Below, one piece after another: positions 6,764-51,120 of a stretch of 64,000 nt of DNA (position 1 is its first letter; every line of letters begins with the position of its first letter). The notes beneath the pieces were generated by a model. It was not told the origin of the DNA, ran no database searches, and was given only the letters and a program-made list of their open reading frames with translations. The stretch is from Bdellovibrionales bacterium. GTDB lineage: Bacteria > Bdellovibrionota > Bdellovibrionia > Bdellovibrionales > UBA1609. Location of the stretch: contig JAYUKW010000001.1 of assembly GCA_043764155.1 (NCBI GenBank), forward strand, positions 118,027-182,026, in the 5' to 3' direction. Made by a program: the position numbers and the translations under genes.

Positions 6764-6816
6764 ATATTTGCATATATAAAATGATTTTGTTATGTTTTTT
6801 TAAAAAGGAGAGCTTT

Positions 6817-8307
6817 ATGTCATCGAATTTATTAAATTTTGCATTAATTTGTCTTGTTTTAAGTCCACTAAGTCTACCATATTTAGTTTCTCAAAATTCT
6901 AAATCTACATTAAGTTTTGGAATTTACTTCGGCCCTATTTTAGCCCTTATTCTTTCAATTCAATCCTATGCTATAAATACACCGCTTATTTTAAATTCAA
7001 GAGCAGTTTTTTTACCTAATGAAAATTTAGGTTTTTACTTGGATATTTTGTCAGGATTTGTATTAAGCTTTGTTTTATTAATTGGCGCTGTGACTACAAA
7101 ATTTTCGTTCAGATACTTAGAAATAGATAAAAATAGAAATCTTTTTTTAAAATCAATATCATATGTCCTTTTTTCAGTTACGGTTATGCTTTTATCAGAT
7201 AACTTTATTCAATTTTTTGTATTTTGGGTTTTAACATCTTACTTTCTTCATAAGCTTTTGACTCATGTTAAAAATGATTCAGAGGCAGAAAGTGCGGCTC
7301 GTCAAAAGTTTTGGACTAGCAGATTAGGCGATCTATTTTTATTAATTTCAATATCTTGTTTTTATGTAATTTTTCGAAGTTTTAATTTTTCAGAATTAGT
7401 AAGAACTGATTTAATTCACAACTGGAATAATAAATGGTTACTAGATGTCGGATGCATATTTTTGGTTTTAGGTTCCATTACTAAGTCTGCACAATGGCCA
7501 TTCCAATCTTGGTTACCACTTACGATGAACACGCCCACGCCTGTTTCAGCTATTATGCATGCAGGGGTTATAAATTCTGGTGGTTATTTATTAATCAGAC
7601 TAAGTCCCCTCATGAATCAATCACATTTAAGTTTAGTATTTTTGACTCTAATAGGTGCTTTAACAGCAATTATTGGCGTCATGGTGATGTGGACCCAAAC
7701 TGATGTTAAAAAAAGTTTGGCCTATTCTACTATTTCACAGATGGGTTTTATGATGCTTCAAATTGGAGTTGGAGCCTATTCTTTAGCTTTGATTCATATG
7801 ATGGGCCATGCATTTTATAAAGCCTATTCATTTTTAACTATAGGACAGGTTGTAGATTATGGACGACTGAATCGTATTTTTGCATCTGAAAAATTGAAGT
7901 ATAATTTCAATTTTGCGTTTTCTATCCTCTTTGCTATACTGATGACAGGTGTTCTGTATTTAATTATTGATCCAAACTTTTCAAATAAGAACCAAGGCTT
8001 AGTGCTTTTAGGTATCTTAAGTCTTTCACTGTCACAAGTTCTACAAAATTCAAAAAATATATTAACGGGTTTAATAACTTGTGCTGCCATTTGTGTTCTT
8101 TACGGATTGATTTATAAAATTTCGATATTTACTTTTTTAGATGTTTTAAATCTCCCCAAGGGAATGGACTCAAGTATGTCCTTACTTATTGATTTTGTAT
8201 TAATCTTTGCTTTTTTAACTTTGTTGTTAATGCAAAGTCACTTTGTGTATCTAAATCAGCATCGTTTTTTTAGAAAAATCTATGTCAAATTATTAAATGG
8301 ATTTTAA
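6817..8307 (+). CDS. dabB: DabB, proton-conducting membrane subunit (NuoL/MrpA-like) of DAB inorganic-carbon pump
   Basis: Polytopic membrane protein; AQWPFQSWLPLTMNTPTPVSAIMHAGVINSGGYLL matches the NuoL/Mrp antiporter core; directly upstream of dabA. Start moved to the ATG at 6817 with a GGAG RBS (track ORF starts at 6781). Confidence 0.8.
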   Translation: MSSNLLNFALICLVLSPLSLPYLVSQNSKSTLSFGIYFGPILALILSIQSYAINTPLILNSRAVFLPNENLGFYLDILSGFVLSFVLLIGAVTTKFSFRYLEIDKNRNLFLKSISYVLFSVTVMLLSDNFIQFFVFWVLTSYFLHKLLTHVKNDSEAESAARQKFWTSRLGDLFLLISISCFYVIFRSFNFSELVRTDLIHNWNNKWLLDVGCIFLVLGSITKSAQWPFQSWLPLTMNTPTPVSAIMHAGVINSGGYLLIRLSPLMNQSHLSLVFLTLIGALTAIIGVMVMWTQTDVKKSLAYSTISQMGFMMLQIGVGAYSLALIHMMGHAFYKAYSFLTIGQVVDYGRLNRIFASEKLKYNFNFAFSILFAILMTGVLYLIIDPNFSNKNQGLVLLGILSLSLSQVLQNSKNILTGLITCAAICVLYGLIYKISIFTFLDVLNLPKGMDSSMSLLIDFVLIFAFLTLLLMQSHFVYLNQHRFFRKIYVKLLNGF

Positions 8308-8331
8308 TTTAAATCATCTAAAGGAGAAATT

Positions 8332-10827
8332 ATGATTCAAATACAATTTGATTCTAAAACTAAGAATTTTGATTCGAACATCCAGAATTTATTAAAAAAA
8401 TCGAATATTGTAGATGTAAAGCACTGTGTTCAATCTGTTAAGCAAAGATTAACTCCGGTATGGGATCTAAGAGATAATGTGGCAGTAAACCCTTTTTTTG
8501 GATTTAGGGATAAAAATTTTTTAGATACTTTATGTTTTCATGAGAGCTTAACTGGTAATAGTCTTTTACCTTCATATAAATATTTTAATTCCCTTTACAG
8601 ATCAGGAAAAATTACTGATGCAGATTTAAATCTAGCATTAATTGAATATAATAATAATTTCGCTAACACTGACAAAATAAGTCTACATGATCTTAAAGTG
8701 GCACTTGAGATAGGTCTTGAATCTGATATTGTTAAAATTAATTCAGGATCTGATGTTTATGATTTGCAAAATAAAACACAATGGACCCCTAAAGTTAAAA
8801 AACATATTTCTAAGTGGTTAAGTGCATACTTTGACGAAGGTCAATCTTTGTGGTCAATGCCAACTAAAAATCTTCGCCTTTTCACCGCTTGGAAAGAATT
8901 AGTGATTTACGACAAATCATTTAAAAAATTAGGATCTAAATTCAATAGTACTTTTTTTGGTTTGTCGGATCAGCCGTCAGAAGTAATTGAAAATTTATCT
9001 GAAAAGTTAATACAAAAATTTGATTTAAGTTCAGAACAACTTGAAATATATTTTTTTAAACTAATAAGTCAAATTCAAGGTTGGGCTTCTTTTGTTCAAA
9101 AGTTTGAATTCGAAGCGGCTCGAAAAAATCAAAATGATGATTTAATTAGAATCGGTGGATTTGAAGATATTTTAGCGATATGTCTCTGTTATGATTACAG
9201 TTTTCTTAATTTAGTAAATTTTGGACCTAAATTCATTTTAATAAATACTTCTTTTGATGAAATCATGACGAACGACAATGTAAAAAAAAATATTCTTCTT
9301 AAGGCTAGTGAAGATAATTATCGCAGCCAGCTATTATCAAAAATTAATGTTAATACTTTAACTGAAAAAAATAATTTTCCTGAAGCTCAAATGGCGTTCT
9401 GTATAGATGTTCGTAGCGAATTGATTCGACGTCATATTGAAAATTTATGTCCTCAGATTCAGACGATAGGTTTCGCGGGATTTTTCGGTATTTCGATGTC
9501 GCATAGGACTTTGGGCGCTTCTCATGCAGAACAACAGTGCCCGGTTTTACTAAATCCAGTTTGCGAGATTCAAGAAATATCTAAATCTAAACATTTAGGA
9601 ATAAAAATTAAAAATAAAATCAAAAATATTAATTTTTTAAAATTTTTAAAATCTGGTGTTAATTCAAGTTTCACTTTTGTAGAGACTTTTGGCTGGACAT
9701 ACATTTTTAAAATGATTAAGTCTAACCATTTCAAATGTAAGATAAATTTAAGTTTTGAACCACTTATTATTAAATCATCGAAAGATAATCAAAGAAGACC
9801 TGATCTAACATCCTTATCTTTAGATCAAAAAACTAAATTAGCTTTCGGAGCTTTAAAAAATATGGGACTCACATCAAATTTTGCTCCCTTTGTTTTTTTT
9901 ATGGGACATAAAAGTAAAACAGAAAACAACCCTCAATCTTCGGCTTTAGACTGTGGCGCTTGCGCAGGTCATAGCGGTTTGTCTAATGCTAGAACTTTAG
10001 CGGGCCTGTTAAATGATCTAGGATTGCGTGAAGAATTAAAAATGAACTATAAAATTGATATTCCATTAAACAGTTGTTTCATATCTGGAGTTCATATCAC
10101 AACAACAGATGATTTTGAATTTGATGAATATCATATTACAGACGCATCAACTTTAAAGTCTTTTTATAGTCTAAAAAATAAACTTAAATTTGCTCAAATT
10201 AAAACACTTAAAGAAAGATCAAAAAATTTTAATTATTGTGAAAATTTAAGCGACAAAGATTTAATTGAACAGATCCAAAATAAATCTAATGACTGGTCAG
10301 AGGTTCAGCCCGAATGGGCCTTAGCAAATAATGCGGCTTTTATTGCTGCACGACGAGAGCTAACTCGAGGTCTAGATTTGAACGGGCGTACTTTCCTTCA
10401 TAATTATGATGCCAAAAAAGATTTGGATCTAAGTATTTTAGAATTAATTATGACAGCCCCTATGATTGTCGCTAACTGGATTAATATGCAATATTACGTT
10501 TCCGCAGTAAATCCTAAGGATTATGGCAGTGATGATAAAACCTTACACAACATTGTAGGACAAATCGGATTAATCAGAGGAAATGGCAGCGACCTTTTGA
10601 TGGGTTTAAGTTTACAGTCCTTATTTAGAAATGGTCAGCTGATGCATCAACCTTTAAGGCTACAAGTTATATTAGAAGCGGCTACAAAAGATATGGATCA
10701 AATTATTTTAAAACATAAAATGGTCAAAGATTTAGTCGAGAATGAATGGTTAAATTTAATTTCAATATGTCCCGACTTTGGATCAAAAAAAATATACTGT
10801 AAGGGCGAATGGGTGCAATTAAATTAA
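8332..10827 (+). CDS. dabA: DabA (DUF2309), beta-carbonic-anhydrase-like subunit of DAB inorganic-carbon pump
   Basis: 831 aa; FCIDVRSE (CxDxR) and ALDCGACAGHSG Zn-site-like motifs typical of DUF2309; AGGAG RBS; paired with dabB. Confidence 0.85.
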   Translation: MIQIQFDSKTKNFDSNIQNLLKKSNIVDVKHCVQSVKQRLTPVWDLRDNVAVNPFFGFRDKNFLDTLCFHESLTGNSLLPSYKYFNSLYRSGKITDADLNLALIEYNNNFANTDKISLHDLKVALEIGLESDIVKINSGSDVYDLQNKTQWTPKVKKHISKWLSAYFDEGQSLWSMPTKNLRLFTAWKELVIYDKSFKKLGSKFNSTFFGLSDQPSEVIENLSEKLIQKFDLSSEQLEIYFFKLISQIQGWASFVQKFEFEAARKNQNDDLIRIGGFEDILAICLCYDYSFLNLVNFGPKFILINTSFDEIMTNDNVKKNILLKASEDNYRSQLLSKINVNTLTEKNNFPEAQMAFCIDVRSELIRRHIENLCPQIQTIGFAGFFGISMSHRTLGASHAEQQCPVLLNPVCEIQEISKSKHLGIKIKNKIKNINFLKFLKSGVNSSFTFVETFGWTYIFKMIKSNHFKCKINLSFEPLIIKSSKDNQRRPDLTSLSLDQKTKLAFGALKNMGLTSNFAPFVFFMGHKSKTENNPQSSALDCGACAGHSGLSNARTLAGLLNDLGLREELKMNYKIDIPLNSCFISGVHITTTDDFEFDEYHITDASTLKSFYSLKNKLKFAQIKTLKERSKNFNYCENLSDKDLIEQIQNKSNDWSEVQPEWALANNAAFIAARRELTRGLDLNGRTFLHNYDAKKDLDLSILELIMTAPMIVANWINMQYYVSAVNPKDYGSDDKTLHNIVGQIGLIRGNGSDLLMGLSLQSLFRNGQLMHQPLRLQVILEAATKDMDQIILKHKMVKDLVENEWLNLISICPDFGSKKIYCKGEWVQLN

Positions 10828-11064: not shown

Positions 11065-11730
11065 TTATCTTTTTTTTATTTGTGCTTTAGCATAATTTCT
11101 CATCAGACCAATCACTAAACCTTGCAAAGTGATTTCATGGGGTTCGTACCACATGGATTTCATTTTGGAGTTGGCAGGTCTAAGTTCCACCTGACCATTT
11201 TTATAAAATATTCTTTTAACAGTGGCTGATTCATCTTCTGTCGAAACCACGGCAAGACTGCCTTCAGAGGCAAAGGAATTTTTTTCGATAATCACTAAAT
11301 CACCACTGTGAATGCCTTCGTCAATCATAGATTCCCCTTGAACACGAAGGACAAAACTTTCCTTGGGTTTTTGAACTAATGAAAGAGGAACATCGACCCA
11401 CTGGTCAAAGTTTTTTTCTTCTAAAGGGAGGCCGGCCGCCACCTTCCCAAGCAGAGGGAGGGTGACAGCGACGGACGGTTTTTCCATCAGATCGGCAAGG
11501 TAATCTGTGGAAGATTTTAAAAGCTTAAGGGAGCGTTTTTCATTCGAGTTTCCTTTTTGAATATAATTTTTGGACTCGAGCTGTTGAATGTAACGTTGAA
11601 CTGAATTGATGCTGGCAAAACCAAAATGGTTTTTAATTTCAGTAAAAGTCGGAGAGATTCCATGGGTTTTTACATAGGTTTCAATAAATTCCAGTGTCGC
11701 TTTTTCTTTGGATGTTAAGGACTTTGCCAT
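11065..11730 (-). CDS. lexA: LexA repressor (S24 peptidase)
   Basis: 221 aa; N-terminal wHTH; cleavage region VAAGLP; catalytic Ser in GESMIDEGIHSGD and Lys in ATVKRIF. Confidence 0.9.
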   Translation of the reverse strand: MAKSLTSKEKATLEFIETYVKTHGISPTFTEIKNHFGFASINSVQRYIQQLESKNYIQKGNSNEKRSLKLLKSSTDYLADLMEKPSVAVTLPLLGKVAAGLPLEEKNFDQWVDVPLSLVQKPKESFVLRVQGESMIDEGIHSGDLVIIEKNSFASEGSLAVVSTEDESATVKRIFYKNGQVELRPANSKMKSMWYEPHEITLQGLVIGLMRNYAKAQIKKR

Positions 11731-12810: not shown

Positions 12811-13509
12811 ATGAACGTTTTATTATCCGACTTAAAAAATCTCAAAGGGTCTTGGAAAGAAAAACTAAATTCTGAAGTCAGCAGGCCTTACATGCTGAAA
12901 TTATTTAATTTTTTAGAAACTGAAAGTCAAAATGGTAAAATCATTTATCCTGAAAAAAAAAACTACTTTAAGGCTCTAGAGCTATGTCCTTTTGAAAAAA
13001 CAAAAGTCATTATTTTAGGTCAAGATCCTTATCACGGTGAAGGCCAAGCTCACGGCTTAAGTTTTTCGGTCTCTAGCGATACAAAATTACCTCCATCTTT
13101 AAAAAATATTTTTAAAGAATTACAATCAGATCTGGGTTCTGGTTGGAAGGCCCCACGGACCGGGGATCTTTCAACATGGGCTAAATCAGGGGTCTTATTA
13201 CTAAACACAACTATGACAGTTGAAAAATCAAAGCCAGGCTCTCACCAAAAAAAGGGCTGGGAGATTTTTACAGATTTTTTATTAACTGAATTATCTCAAG
13301 ATTCTAGACCCAAAGTGTTTATTCTTTGGGGGGCGCCGGCATTAAAAAAAGTAGGACTTATTGACCCTAATACTCATTTCATCATTCAGTCGTCACATCC
13401 GTCGCCGCTTTCAAGTTACCGAGGATTTTTTGGGAGCCGTCCCTTCTCTAAAGCCAATGAATTTTTAACAAGAACTGATCAAAGTGCCATTGATTGGTCT
13501 TTGGTTTGA
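12811..13509 (+). CDS. ung: uracil-DNA glycosylase
   Basis: 232 aa; GQDPYHGEGQAHGLSFS and HPSPLS family-1 UDG motifs. Confidence 0.9.
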   Translation: MNVLLSDLKNLKGSWKEKLNSEVSRPYMLKLFNFLETESQNGKIIYPEKKNYFKALELCPFEKTKVIILGQDPYHGEGQAHGLSFSVSSDTKLPPSLKNIFKELQSDLGSGWKAPRTGDLSTWAKSGVLLLNTTMTVEKSKPGSHQKKGWEIFTDFLLTELSQDSRPKVFILWGAPALKKVGLIDPNTHFIIQSSHPSPLSSYRGFFGSRPFSKANEFLTRTDQSAIDWSLV

Positions 13510-13627: not shown

Positions 13628-14659
13628 ATGATAAAAAAATTCTTTGGTCCGTTTAAAGAAAAAATCCTTATCGTTGATCAACTCACTCCAAAAAACTTTG
13701 AACCAAAACACAGCCTGTTGTTTATTGATGAGAATTTAAAAGAATTTCCAGAAATCAAAAAGTTGGAATCTAAATTTCAAATTTTATTTTTAAAAGCGGG
13801 CGAAGATTTAAAATCTATCGACGGATTAAAATCAGTTTTAATAAAGATCGAACCCCTGCTTGAAAACATCCAACCCCCATATTGTTTTGTGGCTATCGGC
13901 GGGGGAAGTATGGGTGATTTTTGTGGATTTTTAGCTAGTATCTATCATCGTGGTGTCGATTTTATACAGTGCCCAAGTACTTGGCTTGCAGCCATTGATT
14001 CGTCACATGGGGGTAAAACTGCACTAAATGTTTTAAGTTTTAAAAATCAAATTGGAACTTTTTATCCAGCAAAACAAATAATAGTTTCTAAATCCTTGCT
14101 TCAACATCAAAGCCCAACAAAAGCCATGGGCGAGATCACTAAAACTATTTTGCTTTCTAGCCAAAATTCGAAACTTAGAAATTTTATAAATAAAAATTGG
14201 CCGGCTGATTTTGATACAGTTTGGTCTTCGATCACAGACTTTATTAATGTTAAAAATTCTTATGTTAAAAAAGACCCTAAAGAAAAAAAGAAAGAAAGGT
14301 TTAAATTAAATTTAGGTCATACGGTGGGACACGCCTTAGAAAAAATTTATGGTTTACCCCATTCAGAAGCTGTTCTAAGAGGTGTTATTTTTGCTGTCAC
14401 GTGGAGTGTTAAAAAGAAATACTCACATATAAAGCTGCTTCAAGTTTTAATTCATTATCTAGAGATCAATCAATTTTTCCTTGGCGACCTACCCAAAAAG
14501 TCTGAAGTTGAATTCGAAAAGGCTTTACTAAAAGATAAAAAACGAAGTGGTGAAGATATTAATTTTGTTTTTTTAAAAAACTTCAGAGCTGTAATTAAAA
14601 AAGTCACTGTTCCAGAAATTATTAAGGAACTTAAAAATCAAGGCTTAATTGCCAAATGA
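13628..14659 (+). CDS. aroB: 3-dehydroquinate synthase
   Basis: 343 aa; GGGSMGDFCGF, DSSHGGKTALN, LNLGHTVGHALE. Confidence 0.8.
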   Translation: MIKKFFGPFKEKILIVDQLTPKNFEPKHSLLFIDENLKEFPEIKKLESKFQILFLKAGEDLKSIDGLKSVLIKIEPLLENIQPPYCFVAIGGGSMGDFCGFLASIYHRGVDFIQCPSTWLAAIDSSHGGKTALNVLSFKNQIGTFYPAKQIIVSKSLLQHQSPTKAMGEITKTILLSSQNSKLRNFINKNWPADFDTVWSSITDFINVKNSYVKKDPKEKKKERFKLNLGHTVGHALEKIYGLPHSEAVLRGVIFAVTWSVKKKYSHIKLLQVLIHYLEINQFFLGDLPKKSEVEFEKALLKDKKRSGEDINFVFLKNFRAVIKKVTVPEIIKELKNQGLIAK

Positions 14660-15927
14660 AATTTAAATATTCAGGCCCAATTGAAAGTTCAAAGTCGATA
14701 GTCAACCGTGCTCTGATTTTAAGTGCGACGTTTCCAAATTTAAAAATAAGTTATGAAAGTAAAGCTAAAGATATTTTAGAGTTAAAAAAATCTTTAGATG
14801 AATTCAATAAGTCTCAACATACGAATTTAAATACTGAATCTTTAAAAGACAGCTTTGGCCCTTCGGTTTTTGATTTGGGAAGTGGCGGCACAACATTTAG
14901 ATTCTTTGCAATTTATGTTTCAAAATTTAAAGGTCAGTGGGTCCTAGAAATTAGTCCTCAATTGGCGAAAAGACCACATGATGGAATAGTTGAAATTTTA
15001 AGCCAATTGGGGGTTAAGTCCAATAGCTATTTTAATAAAAAAAAACCTTATTTTATAATTGATTCTGAGGGTTGGGCAGGACATCAGGTCGATGTCGACT
15101 TCATTAAATCGTCTCAGTTTTTTTCTGGACTAGCTTTGGCCGCAGCAGATAGTAAAAACGATTTTAAAATAAACTGTTTAAACAGAGATCAAAGTTCTGG
15201 ATATGAGGCCATCACTCTAAAGTTATTAAAGGATATTGGCTGTCAGGTGAAGGACCAAAATAATGTGGTTGTAATTAAATCAACCCAAAAATTAGAAAAA
15301 CCTGTGGAATTGAACATTGGTGCGGATTGGTCTTCCGTCATCTATTTACTTAGTTTTTGTTTTTCAGGATCTGAAATTGAAATTACAAATTTAGATTTGA
15401 ATTCAGCTGAGCCTGATCGTAAAGGTTTGGAATTTTTAAAAGAATTGGGTCTGAATTTTGAACTTAAACAAGGTATTCACTTTTATAATGTTAAAACTAA
15501 GCCTAGTGAATTTAAAAAGTACTTAAAAATTATGAACCTAAAATATAATCCGGATTTATTTCCAGTGATGGCGATTTTACTTAGCCAGATAGCACTAGTA
15601 CACAATATTGAAGTGGCCATAGAATATCCGGAACAGCTTATATATAAAGAATCTGACAGATTAAAACATATGATTATAGTTCTGGGTCGTATCGGATTTC
15701 AAATTGATTCAGATTTAAATACCAAAAGACTAATTTTAAAAATAAAATCCAGTCCGAAATGTGATCAATTAAAAAAAGATGAAAAATTTGATTTTGACTC
15801 AGATTCAGATCACAGGCTTGTTATGAGCTATGAGCTTCTAAAGTCCTTTGGTTATAATATTAGTTACGACAAACCAGAATCAGTTAAAAAAAGTTTTTCA
15901 AATTTTTTTGAGATCGTAAATGGATAA
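14656..15927 (+). CDS. aroA: 3-phosphoshikimate 1-carboxyvinyltransferase (EPSP synthase)
   Basis: 423 aa; KSIVNRALIL, GSGGTTFRF, KESDRL, DHRLVMSY; ATGA overlap with aroB. Confidence 0.8.
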   Translation: MKFKYSGPIESSKSIVNRALILSATFPNLKISYESKAKDILELKKSLDEFNKSQHTNLNTESLKDSFGPSVFDLGSGGTTFRFFAIYVSKFKGQWVLEISPQLAKRPHDGIVEILSQLGVKSNSYFNKKKPYFIIDSEGWAGHQVDVDFIKSSQFFSGLALAAADSKNDFKINCLNRDQSSGYEAITLKLLKDIGCQVKDQNNVVVIKSTQKLEKPVELNIGADWSSVIYLLSFCFSGSEIEITNLDLNSAEPDRKGLEFLKELGLNFELKQGIHFYNVKTKPSEFKKYLKIMNLKYNPDLFPVMAILLSQIALVHNIEVAIEYPEQLIYKESDRLKHMIIVLGRIGFQIDSDLNTKRLILKIKSSPKCDQLKKDEKFDFDSDSDHRLVMSYELLKSFGYNISYDKPESVKKSFSNFFEIVNG

Positions 15928-17920
15928 AATATTCTTAATAGGTCACAGAGGTGTTGGCAAAACAACCTTACTTCAAGATTTAAAACTAAAATCAAAAAAA
16001 TATATTTGCTATGATTTAGACCAAGAGATTGAATCTAGGGGGCAAATTAAAATTCAAGATTTATTTGAAGACGGTCAAGAAAAAAAATTTCGTAATTTGG
16101 AAATTAAAATTTTGAATGAAATAATAAAAGAATTTACATTAAAAAAAATTAAATCTGAACATAAGACATCTTTGAGTCATAATAAAAAATTAAAATCAGA
16201 CAAGATTTCAAATAGGGCGTCATTGCAATTGGTTGTATCTGTTGGAGCCGGTTTTCAATTAGAAAAATTTAAATTTCCGAAGCAAGCTATGGTTTTATGG
16301 CTCAGACGAGTGACGGATTCTAAAGGTAGAATTTTTTTAAATCGCCCAGTATTAACTAAACATAGTGATCCTCTAAAAGAATGGTCTGAACTATTTCCTG
16401 CTCGTGAAAAAAAATACATGTCGTATTCTAATGCTCAAGTCTTTATTCCAGAATATTTTGACCCTAAATTTAATGCTCTTTATGAGTATTTAAATTTTAA
16501 ATCCCCTAAGCATGGATTTGTAACTTATTTGCCGAAAGAAAATGATTTGATTTTAAATTTAAATCCGAGTTCCATGGAATTAAGGTCAGATTTAATTGAA
16601 GAAAATCAAATTTTTAAAATTTTAAAATCTAATCCGAAGGTTCTGCACATAGTATCAATTCGAAATTTAAAATCTAATATTTTAAAAAAGCTATCATGTA
16701 TAAAAGCTAAGTTTTTAGTCGACTGGGATATTGCTTTAGGTTTACCGACAAAAGAGCAGCTTAAATATATTGATATTTATTCTAGTCACAGCGAACGTGC
16801 TGTTGAAGAGATTTTAAATTTTAATTTTGAATTATTAAATTTATATTCATCAGAAATTAAAAAGCTTAACTACGATCCCCATTTTAAGATCTGTCCTTTG
16901 GTTTCGTCCCATGAAGACGCTTTAAATCTAGATTTAAAATTGAGTCAGATTTTTGATCAGTTAAGTTACTCATTTCTGCCTAGATCTGTTGGTGCAAGTC
17001 AGTCCGCTAATAGCTCCGCTTCCACCGTAATTAAAGATTCGGCTAATAATAGTCTATCTTATGATTTGTCTTACTTAAGACAATTAAAATCTTATCAACA
17101 AAAAATTGGATTCTATAGATTTGGTGAAGGATCTTCTTGGGATCAACCTTTGTGGTGGCAGTGGCCTAAAGACAAGCCTAAAGGTTTTTATGGAATCTAT
17201 GGGCAAAATATAAGTCATAGTTACACCCCTAGTTTTCATTTTAATTTTTTTAAATATAAAAATTTTTGGCCTTTATCCATAGATTCATTAGATCAGCTTT
17301 TGAGTCACAAAGATCAGTTTATAAAAAATGACCTTAAGGCTTTGGCTGTCACAGCACCTTACAAATCTGAAGTCTATTCTGCGTCTAATTTTAACAAAAT
17401 AAATGATGTATCAAAGGTAATAAAGCACAATTTTGATCAAGATAAAAATTTAGATTTCAAAACTGCGAATACTTTAATTCTAAGTCCAAAATTAGTTAAT
17501 AAGGTAGACTCTTTTAATACAGATTATTTTGCATTAAAGAATTTTTTGAAGATTCATTTTGATACTAATCAAAAGACTTTTGTTTGGGGCGGTGGTGCTC
17601 TTTTAGAGCAACTAAAAAAAATTAATCCAAACGCTTTTTTTTATTCTGCTCGAACAGGAAAGCCTAGAACTTTGTCTGGTGTTGATTCTTCGCTAACTAA
17701 AAAAGTTCAGCTGATTTGGGCCAGTGGTGAAAAGGGTCTTAATCCAGATGTTCTTAATCAAAAATATACAATTACTAAAATTATAGATTTAGATTACAGA
17801 GATAATTCCAAAGCAAAGCTTTACAGTTTCATAAATAAAATTGAATATGTGAGTGGATTAGAGTTTTTTGTACAACAAGCCCAAGCTCAGCAATCCATAT
17901 GGGATAATTATGAGTTTTAG
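15920..17920 (+). CDS. trifunctional shikimate kinase / type I 3-dehydroquinate dehydratase-like / shikimate dehydrogenase fusion
   Basis: 666 aa. N-terminal GHRGVGKTT Walker A with SK-like DLDQEIE..FR. Middle ELRSDL, VDWDIAL, SSHSE, HFKICPLV resemble type I DHQase. C-terminal YGIYGQNISHSYTPSFH and AVTAPYKSEV match AroE. 8-nt overlap with aroA. Confidence 0.7.
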   Translation: MDKIFLIGHRGVGKTTLLQDLKLKSKKYICYDLDQEIESRGQIKIQDLFEDGQEKKFRNLEIKILNEIIKEFTLKKIKSEHKTSLSHNKKLKSDKISNRASLQLVVSVGAGFQLEKFKFPKQAMVLWLRRVTDSKGRIFLNRPVLTKHSDPLKEWSELFPAREKKYMSYSNAQVFIPEYFDPKFNALYEYLNFKSPKHGFVTYLPKENDLILNLNPSSMELRSDLIEENQIFKILKSNPKVLHIVSIRNLKSNILKKLSCIKAKFLVDWDIALGLPTKEQLKYIDIYSSHSERAVEEILNFNFELLNLYSSEIKKLNYDPHFKICPLVSSHEDALNLDLKLSQIFDQLSYSFLPRSVGASQSANSSASTVIKDSANNSLSYDLSYLRQLKSYQQKIGFYRFGEGSSWDQPLWWQWPKDKPKGFYGIYGQNISHSYTPSFHFNFFKYKNFWPLSIDSLDQLLSHKDQFIKNDLKALAVTAPYKSEVYSASNFNKINDVSKVIKHNFDQDKNLDFKTANTLILSPKLVNKVDSFNTDYFALKNFLKIHFDTNQKTFVWGGGALLEQLKKINPNAFFYSARTGKPRTLSGVDSSLTKKVQLIWASGEKGLNPDVLNQKYTITKIIDLDYRDNSKAKLYSFINKIEYVSGLEFFVQQAQAQQSIWDNYEF

Positions 17921-18932
17921 AAATACGTTTGGTCATATGTTTCAATTGCACACTTTTGGTGAAAGTCATGGTCCATCTATGGGACTTGTGATTGATGGTT
18001 GTCCGTCAGGTCTAAAAATTGATGAAGCTAAAATTGTGAAGTATTTAAATCGAAGACGTCCTGGTCAAAATGCTTTCGTGACGGCAAGAAATGAAAGCGA
18101 TGATTTTAAAATTTTAAGTGGCATTTATGAATCTAAAACATTAGGAACACCAATTGCTGTTGAAATTTTAAATCAAGATCAGAAATCGGCTGATTATGCT
18201 GAAGTTAAACCCAGAAAGGGACATGCGGATCAAGCATGGAAAGATAAATTTGAACACGTGGATTTGCGGGGTGGCGGAAGAGCCTCAGGGCGTGAAACTG
18301 TCAGCCGTGTTTTTGCCGGAGCCATTGCTAGACAGGCTTTAGAAGTTTTAAATCCCGAACTTAAAATTTATGTGTGGATAGAAAGTGTAGGACCAATTAA
18401 AAGTAAAGCTCAGTTTAAAGACTTTAGACTTCAATTTGATAATTACTTAGGACTTAAAACGGATTTAGGCTTTGCAGATGACTCCCAATTAGATGTTTTA
18501 AAAACCATGCTTGAAGACGCCAAATCTAATGGTGAAAGCTATGGTGGGGTTATCAAGGTTAAAATTAAAGGCCCCAATGCTGGATTAGGTCAACCTGTGT
18601 TTTCAAAATTAAAATCTGACTTGGCTTCAGCTTTATTTTCGATTGGGGCTGTTCAAGGAATTAATTTAGGCGATTCAAATGTCAGTTTAAAGGGCAGTGA
18701 ATTTCATAAATTAGATCAGCCCTACGGCGGTATTCAGGGTGGGATTTCTACAGGACAAGATATTGAGCTAGAGGTTTTATTTAAACCCACGTCAAGTATT
18801 CAAGATGTAGCAAAAACTGGAAGACATGATCCTTGCATTATGCCTCGGGCCTTGGTTGTTGTAGAATCGATGATCGCTATGGTGCTCCTTGATCATACAC
18901 TGCTTAAGCGTTTAGATCGTTTAAATATATGA
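17910..18932 (+). CDS. aroC: chorismate synthase
   Basis: HTFGESHGP, RGGGRASGRET. Start set at the ATG at 17910 (MSFRNTFG...), overlapping the upstream stop; the track ORF start at 17868 is an upstream extension. Confidence 0.85.
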   Translation: MSFRNTFGHMFQLHTFGESHGPSMGLVIDGCPSGLKIDEAKIVKYLNRRRPGQNAFVTARNESDDFKILSGIYESKTLGTPIAVEILNQDQKSADYAEVKPRKGHADQAWKDKFEHVDLRGGGRASGRETVSRVFAGAIARQALEVLNPELKIYVWIESVGPIKSKAQFKDFRLQFDNYLGLKTDLGFADDSQLDVLKTMLEDAKSNGESYGGVIKVKIKGPNAGLGQPVFSKLKSDLASALFSIGAVQGINLGDSNVSLKGSEFHKLDQPYGGIQGGISTGQDIELEVLFKPTSSIQDVAKTGRHDPCIMPRALVVVESMIAMVLLDHTLLKRLDRLNI

Positions 18933-20308
18933 GAAACTTTTATTATATCTTATTTTTATTTCTCACGAACTGCACATTTTTAGGTTTGATCCCTGAGCTA
19001 AACCAGGTCACAAATGATCCTAAAATTGAAGCTCAGATTTTAGAAGAAACAAATCTTCATCCTTTTGCTATTTGGCAGGGTTTAACGACTAGCTCTACGA
19101 CAAACATAAAAATTTTAGCAAAAAAAATGGACAAGATTTATTTTAAAGTTTTTGAAAATGAAAAAGAAATTAAAACTATAAATCAAGAGCGTGTTGACGC
19201 TGGAACTACAGACTATGCTGTTTACAAATTAGAGATTTCAAAACTGTCTATTAATACAAATTATACGTTTCAAGTTTTTAAAGATTTACAAATTATTGAT
19301 CAGCGAAATTTTCAAACTGTGGATTTAAAATCCAAAACTGCTAAAATCGGTGTTTTGTCCTGCACTCATGATATCTACAGGGATATTCAATTTAAAATGT
19401 GGAATGATTATTTAAAGCAAGACCCTACATACACCTTCATGATTGGGGATAATGTTTACGCGGATACTCTTCTGCCGTCTAAGGATAAAATTTTTAATTT
19501 TAAACATGCCACCGAGCCCATGTTATGGAAAAGGTATGTTGAGACCTTTAATATTCTTTCTTATTACAGAATAGCAAGATTGGTTCCCACTTTAGCCATT
19601 TGGGATGATCACGATTACGGATTTAATAATGGGGATCAATCTTATCCTTATAAAAAAGAATCTTTAAAAGTTTTTGAAACATTTTACGGTTCTAGATCTG
19701 TGCCACAAATCACTGAAAAATTAGCAGGTGCAGGGTATATATTTAATGCCTTTGACCAAAGATTTATTTTTTCAGATGGACGCACGTTTAGATCTGAACC
19801 AAAAAAGATAAAACAAATGGCTAGTAAAACGCCTGATAAGGAATCAGAATCTCATTGGGGCAAAGATCAAACTTCTAAAATATTAAGATCGATGACTATT
19901 GAAAAACCTACTTGGATTATTAAAGGAGATCAATTTTTTGGTAAGTATCACACTTTTGAATCTTTTGAAGTGAATCACCCCAATGATTTCAAAAACTTTT
20001 TAGCTGAATTAAAAAAAGTTAAATCTAAAGCTTTTTTTGTAAGTGGGGATCGACACTTAAATGAACTGATGAAAATTGATTCAAATGAGACCGGCTACGA
20101 GACCTACGAACTGACTTCAAGTGCTATGCACGCGGCTGTTTTTCCTAACGCATGGAAAAAAAACCCAAATCCAAGACAAATTTTTGGTGCCTCTGGGGTT
20201 CATAACTACTCTATTGTTGAAATTAAAAGTTCTTCGCCTTGGCAGATGAAGGTGCTTTCTTACGGACCAAAAATGAAAATCCTTTATCAGCAAGACTTAA
20301 ACTTTTAA
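18929..20308 (+). CDS. PhoD-like metallophosphatase, probable lipoprotein
   Basis: 459 aa; LTNC lipobox-like signal; WDDHDYGFNNGD and SGDRHLNEL; ATGA overlap with aroC. Confidence 0.7.
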   Translation: MRNFYYILFLFLTNCTFLGLIPELNQVTNDPKIEAQILEETNLHPFAIWQGLTTSSTTNIKILAKKMDKIYFKVFENEKEIKTINQERVDAGTTDYAVYKLEISKLSINTNYTFQVFKDLQIIDQRNFQTVDLKSKTAKIGVLSCTHDIYRDIQFKMWNDYLKQDPTYTFMIGDNVYADTLLPSKDKIFNFKHATEPMLWKRYVETFNILSYYRIARLVPTLAIWDDHDYGFNNGDQSYPYKKESLKVFETFYGSRSVPQITEKLAGAGYIFNAFDQRFIFSDGRTFRSEPKKIKQMASKTPDKESESHWGKDQTSKILRSMTIEKPTWIIKGDQFFGKYHTFESFEVNHPNDFKNFLAELKKVKSKAFFVSGDRHLNELMKIDSNETGYETYELTSSAMHAAVFPNAWKKNPNPRQIFGASGVHNYSIVEIKSSSPWQMKVLSYGPKMKILYQQDLNF

Positions 20309-37130: not shown

Positions 37131-38969
37131 TTACTTTAAAAGCTTATTTGGCTTAAGCACAATCTGTTGAGTCTCTTCGCTTTTTAAGATGACTTCCTGT
37201 TCATCAAATTTACGACTTTTTCTATTCACAGCGCGGACCACAACCTTTTTGTCGGCGTGATATTTGTAGCCTTTAATTGGCAAACGGTCGTAGATTGGGT
37301 TTCCGTTAATATAAACAATAGATTCCCTTGGCATAACGTCAATGTCTAAATAACCCACTCTGATTTTTTGTAAAGTGCCTTTGTAGTCTGAACTTGAATA
37401 GTTGGATTCAATTTTTGTTTGGTAATCAATATAGTCTTGCTTTTTTAAACCCAATGTAAAGTCCATGTCTGAAGGCACTTTGACTCTGGCTGGTGTTAAT
37501 TGACCTGTGCTGACTCCGTTTACAACCACTTCTGCCCCTTGGGGAAAGCTATTGATGGTGATGTACTTTTCGTTAATTCTTGAGTAAAGAGTTTCTGGAA
37601 GCTTTTCATTCATTGATGCCATTTCATCAACGTTGTTCCCAGGAAAAAGTTGAGACGCTATTAGTGCTAAACCTGCCGCGATTAAAAACATAATGACGTA
37701 TTTAGTGTAATCTCTAATATCAAAATTTTTATTATTGCGTGCTCTTTGCCTATAATTGGTTTGCGAAATACTTCTTTGATTTTGAGATTGGGTGTAGCTC
37801 GGTTTTGACTTGTCCTTGCTAATGGTAATACTTTTTATATCAAAATTTGATTTTTCACTTTTTTCAAAATCACTAAATAGATTAACTTTGCTTTGCTCAA
37901 ACCCTAAATCATCAATGTCTATATCGGTCTTTGTGACTCCAACGATTGTTTTTTCTTGCTCCGAATAGGAAGTACTATTGGCTTCAAACTTAACGCTGGA
38001 ATATTCAATTAATTTTTTTCTATTTTGTAATATTTCATCTGCATACAAAGATTTAATAAATATAGAAAAATCTTGAGAAGAAAATTCGGGATATTGAATA
38101 TTCAAAAATCTGTTTAAATCCTTTTGAAAATCCGCACAAGTTTGATAACGATCTGTTGTCGACTTAGTTAAAGATTTATTTACAATTCTTTCTAGTTCTT
38201 CAGGAACATTAGGATTTAATTTTCTAACAGATGGAATTTTTCCTTCACGGATCTTTTTTAAAGTTCCAATTTCACTTTCAGCAACAAATAGTCTTTCTTT
38301 TGCTAAAAGTTCCCAAAGAACAATACCTAATGAAAAAATATCTGTTCTTAAATCTATACTTTCGCCTGTAGCTTGTTCTGGGGACATGTACGCGAACTTA
38401 CCTTTTAAAGTTCCAGCTTTGGTCGATTCAACTTGGCTTTCCGCTTTTGCAATTCCAAAATCAACAACTTTAACTTCACCTTCAAAACTAACCATGATGT
38501 TTTGTGGACTCATGTCTCTGTGAATAATATTTAAAGGCTTACCTGTTGTTCCATCTAAACATCTATGGGCATGATCTAATCCAGCCGCCACGTCTTTAAT
38601 AATATTTACGATTTGATCAATAGAGAAGTAGGTGTCTAATTCCTTTTGCATACGAGTTAAAATTTGACGTAAATTTTTACCGTTAACATACTCCATAAGA
38701 ATATAGAATTGGCCACTTTCAACGCCAAATTCATATATAGGCACTATGTTACTGTGTGATAAGTTTACATTTATTTTAGCTTCGTCTTTGAACATGTTAA
38801 TAAATTCAGTGTTAGATGAGTACTGAGGCAAAATTCTTTTGATTGCACTGAATTTTGAAATTCCGCCTGTACCTGAGCTTCTAGCCAAAAAAATTTCGGC
38901 CATACCACCCATTGCAATCCTTTCTAAAAGGATATGTTTACCGAAAATTTCAAACTCTTTCTTAGCCAA
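37131..38969 (-). CDS. Ser/Thr protein kinase with TM segment and C-terminal PEGA domain
   Basis: 612 aa; HRDMSPQNIM, DFGIAKA, YMSPEQ; SFPQGAEVVVNG (PEGA). Confidence 0.85.
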   Translation of the reverse strand: MAKKEFEIFGKHILLERIAMGGMAEIFLARSSGTGGISKFSAIKRILPQYSSNTEFINMFKDEAKINVNLSHSNIVPIYEFGVESGQFYILMEYVNGKNLRQILTRMQKELDTYFSIDQIVNIIKDVAAGLDHAHRCLDGTTGKPLNIIHRDMSPQNIMVSFEGEVKVVDFGIAKAESQVESTKAGTLKGKFAYMSPEQATGESIDLRTDIFSLGIVLWELLAKERLFVAESEIGTLKKIREGKIPSVRKLNPNVPEELERIVNKSLTKSTTDRYQTCADFQKDLNRFLNIQYPEFSSQDFSIFIKSLYADEILQNRKKLIEYSSVKFEANSTSYSEQEKTIVGVTKTDIDIDDLGFEQSKVNLFSDFEKSEKSNFDIKSITISKDKSKPSYTQSQNQRSISQTNYRQRARNNKNFDIRDYTKYVIMFLIAAGLALIASQLFPGNNVDEMASMNEKLPETLYSRINEKYITINSFPQGAEVVVNGVSTGQLTPARVKVPSDMDFTLGLKKQDYIDYQTKIESNYSSSDYKGTLQKIRVGYLDIDVMPRESIVYINGNPIYDRLPIKGYKYHADKKVVVRAVNRKSRKFDEQEVILKSEETQQIVLKPNKLLK

Positions 38970-50129: not shown

Positions 50130-50978
50130 TTAAAATGCTAACTTTAAACAAAATACAGATCCGCCAGATTTTAAAAACTCAGACGTATCTACCTTTTTAA
50201 TTTTAAATTTATAATCACCTAATCTAGAAATCGTATCTACATTCTGTTGATCAATAATGACTGTTTTGCCATCGGGGCAAAACAAATTACAAGCTAAAGA
50301 CTTTCTAGCTTCTTCAATTGGAATTTCAATTTTTAATTTAAAGTGCTGATCAAGTTTTTTTAAAGAGTCCTTATCAAAAGCCTCTTTAACGTAAGCGCAC
50401 GTATCTTGGTCTAAAATCGCTAAACAAGTATCTAGATGATAAAAATAAGGACTAATAAGTTTTAAATTGATTACTGGTTTTTGAATTATCTTTTTTAACT
50501 GATTTGCGACATCTTGATGGGTCCGATAACCATGGCCTAAAAAAAGTTTATTATTTTCAAACGACCATAAAGCATCGCCCATACCTTCAAATGGACCAAT
50601 ATTAAGTTGGTACGTTTTGTAGCCTCTTTCATTAGCCCATTGTTTAAAAAATATAACTTCACCTGCCCGTTCTGCCGTTGCCATATGACTTAGAACAAAA
50701 CTTAGCTGGTTATAGTTAGAAGGATCTTTAAATGGTAAAAGCTGATTGGCAGTAAAGACCATATCCGGATGCGTTTCTGAAGCTGTAACTTGAAGAACAT
50801 TAAAGCCTAAATCCAAATAAATTTGCTGCAAAGCATCCCATTGTTGCCGAGCAATTCGTTCATTTACTATTTTCAGCTCACCATCGACGGCCCGCATAAA
50901 AGGATTGATTTCATAGCCTATTTTGAAATATGTCGGTGGCACCATTAATATATTTTGAGTCCGAGATTCTTTATTCAT
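50130..50978 (-). CDS. amidinotransferase / dimethylarginine dimethylaminohydrolase-fold enzyme (guanidino-group modifying superfamily)
   Basis: ILMVPPTYF N-terminus; C-terminal SGGSVFCLKL catalytic-Cys motif; start set at the ATG at 50978 (the track ORF extends to 51053). Confidence 0.65.
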   Translation of the reverse strand: MNKESRTQNILMVPPTYFKIGYEINPFMRAVDGELKIVNERIARQQWDALQQIYLDLGFNVLQVTASETHPDMVFTANQLLPFKDPSNYNQLSFVLSHMATAERAGEVIFFKQWANERGYKTYQLNIGPFEGMGDALWSFENNKLFLGHGYRTHQDVANQLKKIIQKPVINLKLISPYFYHLDTCLAILDQDTCAYVKEAFDKDSLKKLDQHFKLKIEIPIEEARKSLACNLFCPDGKTVIIDQQNVDTISRLGDYKFKIKKVDTSEFLKSGGSVFCLKLAF

Positions 50979-51120
50979 GGCCCACTTTGACAGCCCGTTT
51001 GTCCAAAGTCTAGCATAGACACTGAGCCTACAAATACAAACGCACCTATGCATTTTAAAAATTAATCTTAAAAGCTAAAGTTTCGTTTTAATTTAGGTAT
51101 CAACAACAAAAGGGGATCTT

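Follow-up and report, generated by a model that had tools for sequence, protein, structure and literature searches.

A shikimate operon in AROM order with a predicted trifunctional kinase-dehydroquinase-dehydrogenase protein in Bdellovibrionales, probably a product of convergence

Fungi and protists join five enzymes of the shikimate pathway in one protein, AROM, in an order that is not the order of the reactions, and to our knowledge the reason for this has never been settled. We analyzed a stretch of 64,000 nucleotides (positions 118,027 to 182,026, forward strand, of contig JAYUKW010000001.1 in assembly GCA_043764155.1; hereafter the window) from an uncultured Bdellovibrionales bacterium, in which the same five activities follow one another in adjacent genes. 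The authors of the AROM structure gave the domain order as 3-dehydroquinate synthase (DHQS), EPSP synthase (EPSPS; EPSP is 5-enolpyruvylshikimate-3-phosphate), shikimate kinase (SK), 3-dehydroquinate dehydratase or dehydroquinase (DHQD, DHQase) and shikimate dehydrogenase (SDH, SD) (PMC6851490). Prokaryotic fusions of shikimate enzymes have been described by the Hartmann laboratory as bifunctional exceptions to a monofunctional rule (PMC10792529). The locus is most likely a chromosomal shikimate operon covering steps 2 to 7 of chorismate synthesis. Our preferred explanation, to which we give a probability of about 0.72, is a translationally coupled operon with a bacterial trifunctional enzyme that converged on the AROM order and did not descend from AROM. 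The features of the locus, in window positions, are as follows.

13628-14659, plus strand: aroB, 3-dehydroquinate synthase, 343 aa, pathway step 2
14656-15927, plus strand: aroA, class I type EPSP synthase, 423 aa, pathway step 6
15920-17920, plus strand: aroKDE fusion, the whole open reading frame (ORF), 666 aa
15920-16495, plus strand: aroKDE residues 1-192, shikimate kinase domain, pathway step 5
16496-17173, plus strand: aroKDE residues 193-418, putative divergent type I 3-dehydroquinate dehydratase domain, pathway step 3
17174-17920, plus strand: aroKDE residues 419-666, shikimate dehydrogenase domain, pathway step 4
17910-18932, plus strand: aroC, chorismate synthase, 340 aa from ATG 17910, pathway step 7
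18929-20308, plus strand: downstream ORF, weakly PhoD-like, 459 aa, N-terminus hydrophobic and ending in Cys

The first-pass annotation, made from the letters alone, had described this gene order, start/stop overlaps at all junctions and an arrangement colinear with AROM. All three descriptions held: the ORFs lay at these coordinates, the overlaps were 4, 8, 11 and 4 nt, and DHQS-EPSPS-SK-DHQase-SDH is the published AROM order. The aroB stop and the aroA start share 4 nt (ATGA), aroA and aroKDE overlap by 8 nt, aroKDE and aroC by 11 nt, and aroC and the downstream ORF by 4 nt. The 11-nt value presumes that aroC starts at ATG 17910 (MSFRNTFGHMFQLHTFGESHG), with the aroKDE stop codon TAG at 17918-17920; the mechanical ORF begins at TTG 17868, but on the identical contig at ENA the public annotation predicts a product of 340 aa, which places the start at 17910. 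Stop codons part aroB, aroA and aroKDE, so the five activities are not carried on a single polypeptide as in AROM. No gene for 3-deoxy-D-arabino-heptulosonate-7-phosphate (DAHP) synthase and no chorismate-using gene was found within the window, and DAHP synthase is encoded outside this locus. In one relative (locus L081), both a DAHP synthase gene and a chorismate-using gene were located a few kb from the operon. Promoter and terminator scans of the locus gave only background-level signals, and we therefore make no regulatory claim.

The 666-aa ORF had been read in the first-pass annotation as one chain with SK, DHQase-like and SDH regions, and a Pfam scan had been proposed as the check. The scan found the SK domain, left the SDH domain below threshold and gave no match for the middle region, which was supported by other means. 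The middle region (residues ~193-418) had no Pfam match even at E≤10, the type I DHQase model PF01487 (DHquinase_I) being absent for both the whole protein and the excised region. It also had no NCBIfam match, and no precomputed PF01487 match existed in any listed homologue. Conserved blocks were read from an alignment of 39 homologues with a mean column identity of 31%. In the middle block E220, R222, R248, D268, S288, H290, K323, R387 and Q409 were invariant. In order and approximate spacing they follow the active site of type I dehydroquinases (Glu-x-Arg, Arg, Asp, Ser-x-His, the Lys that forms the Schiff base, Arg and Gln). All canonical residues of a type I enzyme were thus present in order (the Schiff-base Lys, the catalytic His and the Glu/Arg/Arg/Arg/Gln set); we take their catalytic and substrate-binding roles to be those established for AroD of Salmonella and E. 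coli. When family profiles of each domain were searched against all sequences of solved structures, the middle-domain profile matched only Streptococcus type I dehydroquinases, with AroD 2ocz as the best (E=1.6e-4, 24.8 bits) and with the motif pairs ELRDD/EWRAD, SfR/TLR, SlH/SYH and hlKla/vvKia. Every middle-domain motif also lined up in a joint alignment with fungal AROM and with AroD of S. pyogenes and S. mutans. The glutamate of the bacterial AroD 'EGG' motif is absent from the middle domain; AROM carries Gln at the same position, showing that this glutamate does not define the family.

The kinase domain scored 40.5 bits with Pfam SKI (cut-off 22.1) over residues 10-71 only, and 39 bits against an NCBIfam equivalog cut-off of 180, which it missed. 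Its family profile aligned over ~140-160 residues with the shikimate kinases of Aquifex, H. pylori and E. coli. The invariant or near-invariant residues were the Walker A motif GHRGVGKT, D32/D34, R58, G109-A-G111 and the lid residues R130, D133, R137 and R142, with GxxGxGKT, D34, R58, G109-A-G111, R137 and R142 strictly invariant; a SKI score above the gathering threshold was accompanied by a P-loop, shikimate-binding residues and lid arginines, as expected of a shikimate kinase. The dehydrogenase domain scored 23 bits with Shikimate_dh_N on residues 426-488 (gathering score 27) and 23 bits with TIGR00507 (cut-off 200), so that neither AroE family model recognized the window sequence; a PF08501 match was precomputed for most homologues of the 666-aa protein. 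The dehydrogenase family profile matched Aquifex AroE over its full length (E=2e-23). Its invariant residues, S434, T478-P-x-K482, N517-T518, T534-D535, G557/G559 and Q653/Q657, aligned with the SxS, PxK, NT, NTD and Q motifs of solved AroE structures, covering the catalytic and substrate residues. The roles of the Lys/Asp pair and of the Ser, Asn, Thr and Gln residues are presumably those established for E. coli AroE.

The profile of the whole family gave a single-stretch alignment to residues 871-1431 of Chaetomium AROM (6hqv), i.e., its SK-DHQD-SDH part, and also spanned both domains of Arabidopsis DHQD-SDH (2gpt). AlphaFold, run with the family alignment, gave a model with a predicted local distance difference test score (pLDDT) of 90.4 and a predicted template-modelling (TM) score (pTM) of 0.89, and disorder was confined to two lineage-specific inserts, at residues ~87-100 and ~364-377. 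For the middle domain the model showed a barrel-type fold at high confidence, pLDDT exceeding 90 over most of it. In Foldseek the best solved matches of the model were AROM 6hqv (1e-20), the C. albicans SK+DHQase+SDH fragment 7tbv and then Arabidopsis DHQD-SDH. Rigid-body superposition on AROM structures was poor (TM ~0.25), and the best rigid-body match was Arabidopsis DHQD-SDH, with TM 0.49 (query) and 0.63 (target), a root-mean-square deviation of ~6 A and ~545 aligned columns. The predicted model, together with the profile alignment through the DHQase of 6hqv and 2gpt, points to a type I DHQase fold in the middle domain. Catalytic residues, profile match and model agree with the fusion reading: the protein is, as modelled, a single chain of SK, type I DHQase and SDH with all three active sites probably intact; that they are active is suggested by conserved residues and fold. 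The two inserts, at residues ~72-100 (16133-16219) and ~358-380 (16991-17059), are rich in Ser, Lys and Asn, have low pLDDT and lengthen the 666-aa protein by ~60-90 residues over the typical family member. Both are absent from most relatives; one of the three closest (L003) has a similar-sized stretch in the kinase region.

The middle region might instead be a degenerate, non-catalytic spacer derived from a DHQase, which would leave a bifunctional SK and SDH protein and assign step 3 to a separate AroD or AroQ. Such a spacer would fit the missing Pfam and NCBIfam matches, the source annotations, which give shikimate kinase and/or dehydrogenase only, and the lack of the conserved 'EGG' that follows the second arginine of bacterial AroD. 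However, the Schiff-base Lys, the His, three Arg, Glu, Asp and Gln were invariant at a mean column identity of 26%, and a working active site is therefore expected rather than a spacer. Further, AROM itself has Q and not E at the 'EGG' position, and the predicted barrel-type fold was confident. We consider a non-catalytic middle domain unlikely.

The other operon products also appear, from their sequences, to be genuine, strongly diverged enzymes. NCBIfam equivalog cut-offs were widely missed by aroB, aroA and the fusion, and reached by aroC only. AroB scored 96 bits with Pfam DHQ_synthase and 63 bits with DHQS_C, passing the Pfam models of both its N-terminal and its C-terminal domain. Its score with TIGR01357 was 191 bits, under the cut-off of 305, showing that it is divergent; a related sugar-phosphate cyclase model gave 172. 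Its catalytic and metal-binding residues were invariant among 26 relatives, and operon context and conserved residues favor the identity of the 343-aa protein as AroB. AroA scored 126 bits with Pfam EPSP_synthase (PF00275) and 168 bits with TIGR01356 (cut-off 287), missing the equivalog level. Its family profile ranked class I enzymes at 235-182 bits (Vibrio 235, plant 216, E. coli 215) and class II enzymes at 137-98, so that AroA, recognized by the Pfam model, lies nearer to class I than to class II. The residues K13, R18, D39, R106, Q154, D300, K331, E332, R335, D385, H386, R387 and K412 were invariant. The AroA loop for binding of glyphosate and phosphoenolpyruvate reads G-S-GGTTFRF (conserved as G-x-GGTTFRF), in contrast to LGNAGTAMRP in class I enzymes, and this unusual loop allows no prediction of glyphosate sensitivity. 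A segment of ~25 residues found in the class I EPSPS of Gammaproteobacteria, plants and AROM is absent from most Bdellovibrionales AroA. AroC scored 321 bits with Pfam Chorismate_synt (PF01264) and 294 bits with TIGR00033, above the cut-off of 212.

The SK-DHQase-SDH fusion is a lineage trait. A database search returned 234 homologues of the 666-aa protein, nearly all of 545-705 aa and aligned end to end, and the named sources among them were Bdellovibrio, Bdellovibrionales or Oligoflexia. When one genome was scanned for each species, at least 212 loci proved to encode a relative of the fusion, and 80 of these were inspected. Nearly all 80 belonged to Bdellovibrionales, Pseudobdellovibrionaceae, Bdellovibrio or Oligoflexia, including three cultured Bdellovibrio strains with closed chromosomes (HCB209, HCB288 and HCB290). 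The exceptions were one Bacteriovoracaceae metagenome-assembled genome (MAG), one genome labelled 'Deltaproteobacteria' and one labelled 'Planctomycetota'. The synteny survey of related genomes that had been proposed at the outset bore out the arrangement: aroB-aroA-aroKDE was present in 58/80 loci, and in 50/80 it continued contiguously and co-directionally into aroC. In 9/80 loci aroA was displaced and aroB lay directly 5' of aroKDE; most of the others were cut off by contig ends. The three closest relatives (L001-L003) had 45-52% identity in the fusion, in contrast to ~80% in AroB. The locus labelled Planctomycetota (L047, JAFGQW010000125.1), from a GC-rich MAG, carried an aroB-aroA-aroKDE-aroC block with 25% identity, which may reflect misbinning, a wrong lineage label or an operon acquired laterally.

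In two relatives the chain extended further. At positions 1865-4741 of L081, aroA was in frame with aroKDE, giving a 958-aa EPSPS-SK-DHQase-SDH protein (P0067), and a second in-frame protein of the same domain order (991 aa) was encoded at about 6810-9773 of L016. Identity between the two four-domain proteins was only 37%, and P0067 was closer to unfused relatives, with 47-52% identity in its K-D-E part, suggesting that the aroA fusion arose at least twice; errors at the same junction in the two MAGs may be the alternative. No DHQS was included, and four domains was the largest fusion among the relatives. An apparent 1013-codon fusion in L047 was rejected, as aroA and aroKDE were in different frames and the long open frame was a GC-rich artefact.

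The first-pass annotation had offered two origins for the likeness to AROM, a bacterial arrangement related to the AROM ancestor or a eukaryote-to-bacterium transfer followed by fission. Neither was favored by comparison of the domains. The DHQS profile scored 230 bits with 5hvn, 218 with S. aureus and 212 with V. cholerae (ordinary range 230-199) and only 183, 165 and 164 with AROM. For the EPSPS profile the values were 235 (V. cholerae), 216 (plant) and 215 (E. coli; range 235-203) versus 194, 190 and 185 for AROM. With the SK profile, Aquifex, H. pylori and E. coli enzymes reached 64, 61 and 60 bits (range 64-56) and AROM 48, 43 and 42; with the SDH profile, Aquifex, Staphylococcus and Clostridium enzymes reached 86, 84 and 79 (range 86-70) and AROM 55, 55 and 47-46. 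The DHQase-only profile matched no AROM among the solved structures and none of the fungal AROM fragments. AROM thus ranked under ordinary bacterial enzymes for all five domains, which argues against placing the operon proteins in an AROM clade. A filter-free phmmer search with AroB among 1.84 billion representatives gave 17,993 matches, 390 of them at E≤1e-30; no AROM-sized protein was among the best 150, which were all 183-531 aa long and nearly all metagenomic. Two observations had been named beforehand as together arguing against a relationship with AROM. The first, domains lying among ordinary bacterial homologues, was found; the second, the same order being widespread in bacteria, held only within Bdellovibrionales, in a survey that covered loci encoding a relative of the fusion.

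Trees of DHQS, EPSPS, SK and SDH were built from MAFFT alignments with Kimura distances, neighbor-joining and 300 bootstraps. They included the Bdellovibrionales locus sequences, outgroup sequences for each domain from PDB alignments, and fungal AROM domains taken from fragments and from genomic loci of two fungi (Podila and Drechmeria), in which DHQS and EPSPS were pieced together from ORFs around introns. A search with the SK-DHQD-SDH stretch of C. thermophilum had returned only AROM fragments of 390-970 aa without DHQS. One protein (P0131), deposited as 'shikimate dehydrogenase, partial [Candidatus Bathyarchaeota archaeon]', had 59% identity to Chaetomium AROM with EPSPS, SK, DHQase and SDH domains, and is probably fungal contamination in an archaeal MAG. 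In the DHQS tree, the Bdellovibrionales clade with S. aureus was separated from AROM with Gammaproteobacteria and H. pylori in 99% of bootstraps. For DHQS and EPSPS, AROM was at a distance of ~1.0 from gammaproteobacterial and plant enzymes, in contrast to ~1.8-2.0 from the Bdellovibrionales clade. Inspection of the alignments revealed no indels common to AROM and the clade, and the AROM-specific insertions in DHQS and EPSPS were absent from the clade.

Several points weigh against convergence of a trifunctional enzyme. The neighbor-joining trees held 21-33 taxa with 4-5 non-AROM outgroups per domain, and AROM was represented by fungi only. The EPSPS tree was uninformative: gammaproteobacterial and plant outgroups formed one cluster, leaving three lobes, and the tree is therefore silent on sisterhood. 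The Bdellovibrionales clade and AROM grouped together in 42% (SK) and 58% (SDH) of bootstraps. Because the clade and AROM are the two longest branches, this grouping is open to long-branch attraction; as a sequence-based signal it would fit such an artefact and also a real deep relationship. The naive chance of matching an exact five-item order is 1 in 120, and convergence therefore needs a functional reason. Finally, the DHQase domain fails Pfam entirely, and the middle domain may conceivably serve as a scaffold only, if the genome also has a separate aroD or aroQ.

The Bdellovibrionota arrangement and AROM might alternatively be of common origin, either through acquisition by an early eukaryote or from an older bacterial source, with the sequence signal erased by fast evolution. 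The five activities stand in identical order, even to SK preceding DHQase, which does not follow metabolism, and the fusions within the lineage recreate A-K-D-E. The SK (42%) and SDH (58%) bootstraps do not reject a grouping with AROM, and the bacterial proteins form long branches in every domain. However, the DHQS topology is contrary at 99%, the EPSPS and DHQS of AROM lie only about half as far from gammaproteobacterial and plant enzymes as from the Bdellovibrionales clade, inspection revealed no common indels, and the DHQase profile lacks any match to an AROM DHQase. The predicted packing of K-D-E is also unlike that of AROM (TM ~0.25), its D-E part being plant-like (TM 0.63). Since the SK and SDH trees do not settle the matter, a deep common origin keeps a small probability, and we rate it as improbable. 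The particular scenario in which an early eukaryote took a colinear, partly fused aroB-aroA-aroK-aroD-aroE block from such a bacterium, or shared a bacterial source with it, and in which divergence now hides the event, appears slightly less probable again.

Transfer in the opposite direction would have brought a eukaryotic AROM into a Bdellovibrionales ancestor, where it was split into aroB, aroA and aroKDE with the order kept. It would explain the exact colinearity, the still-fused K-D-E and the position of AROM as the best whole-chain structural match. Yet all five domains are less like AROM than many bacterial enzymes, and each of the best 150 AroB matches among the representatives searched has the size of a monofunctional enzyme. 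In the DHQS tree AROM stands apart from the clade at 99%, and the AROM-specific DHQS and EPSPS insertions are missing from the clade. Change in the lineage runs to fusion and not to fission, with unfused aroA in the majority and two separate fusions. With profile rankings, trees and insertions all against AROM affinity, transfer followed by fission is very unlikely and effectively excluded. An artefact of assembly or frameshift that joined separate genes into the 666-aa ORF, as a metagenome-assembled contig might suggest, is hardly credible, since the identical protein is found on independent contigs, of 519 kb at NCBI and of 235 kb at ENA, and full-length homologues occur in at least 212 species genomes, including the three closed Bdellovibrio chromosomes.

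The preferred explanation, convergence within bacteria, would work as follows. Because the reading frames overlap by 4-11 nt, ribosomes could restart on the next gene, which would keep the enzymes in roughly fixed proportions. Dehydroquinate made by AroB would be converted on the single chain of the fusion to dehydroshikimate, shikimate and shikimate-3-phosphate, with a highly diverged Schiff-base (type I) dehydroquinase and presumably an NADPH-dependent dehydrogenase, and AroA and AroC would then convert shikimate-3-phosphate to chorismate. The K-D-E fusion would hold three consecutive activities together. It most likely arose from closely packed neighboring genes, either inside Bdellovibrionales or at the root of the order, for which loss of a stop codon would be a plausible route, and fusing would be continuing in the lineage, aroA having been joined in frame at least twice. 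The likeness to AROM would then reflect convergence or shared constraint; the operon sequences form a fast-evolving bacterial lineage of their own.

Some observations concern the surroundings of the operon. The downstream ORF (18929-20308) scored 29 bits with Pfam PhoD and had no individually significant stretch. Its N-terminus (MRNFYYILFLFLTNC...) is hydrophobic and ends in Cys, and the product may be a lipoprotein. It is probably co-transcribed with the operon and has no known role in the shikimate pathway. The ORF was kept directly 3' of aroC in L001-L003, L011, L017, L024 and L052 but not in most loci. Just upstream of aroB lie genes for LexA (11065-11730, minus strand) and uracil-DNA glycosylase (ung; 12811-13509, plus strand). 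The ung gene was found shortly upstream of aroB in many of the 80 loci, showing that the ung-aroB linkage is also a feature of the clade. At 6781-10827 (plus strand), a gene for a proton-antiporter-like membrane subunit (Proton_antipo_M) adjoins DabA (712 bits), forming a DAB-type pair for uptake of inorganic carbon, not what one would expect of a member of a mainly predatory or heterotrophic group. Proteins with eukaryote-like domains are encoded on the minus strand at 37131-38969, 50130-51053 and 56933-58960: a Ser/Thr kinase with a PEGA domain, a 'eukaryotic' DDAH match and a multi-Kelch beta-propeller.

A large bacterial clade therefore carries the AROM order as separate overlapping genes, with the three C-terminal activities on one chain and EPSPS added at least two times. 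If convergent, this suggests that function or assembly favors the B-A-K-D-E order, which would then be no frozen accident, and the smaller bacterial proteins would be tractable models for channeling, stoichiometry and domain packing. If a common origin were true, the bacterial tri- and tetrafunctional proteins would be surviving intermediates toward the pentafunctional enzyme. The family has no curated model and its DHQase domain goes unannotated, so that pathway reconstructions in Bdellovibrionota would wrongly report step 3 as missing.

We found no paper or curated family model for a bacterial SK-DHQase-SDH or four-domain protein, and no literature linking Bdellovibrio or Bdellovibrionota with AROM, an AROM-ordered operon or shikimate fusions, in searches that left most subscription journals outside their scope. 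The prokaryotic exceptions surveyed were bifunctional (PMC10792529), in agreement with the first-pass view that such a fusion is not standard. The bacterial trifunctional SK-DHQase-SDH protein therefore appears to be undescribed, while multi-enzyme shikimate proteins as such are known as AROM, plant DHQD-SDH and bacterial bifunctional fusions. The locus resembles AROM in the order of activities, in having SK-DHQase-SDH on one chain and in the best whole-chain structural and profile match, and two relatives of the Bdellovibrionales lineage extend the chain to EPSPS-SK-DHQase-SDH. It differs in having three polypeptides instead of one, aroC in the same operon, a bacterial host, domains nearer to ordinary bacterial enzymes, no AROM insertions and a predicted packing with TM ~0.25. 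Arabidopsis DHQD-SDH (PDB 2o7q/2gpt) likewise has a type I DHQase followed by SDH on one chain. However, the plant enzyme has no kinase domain, scored 69.5 bits with the Bdellovibrionales SDH profile, under several bacterial AroE, and has a DHQase that is seen by standard models, whereas the Bdellovibrionales DHQase is not. The bacterial bifunctional fusions (DHQD-SK of Clostridia, AroK-AroB and chorismate mutase-SDH) also join shikimate enzymes, and NCBIfam models exist for AroK/AroB fusions. They have two domains in other orders, with DHQD before SK in Clostridia; by contrast, the order here is SK-DHQD-SDH, with four domains in two relatives.

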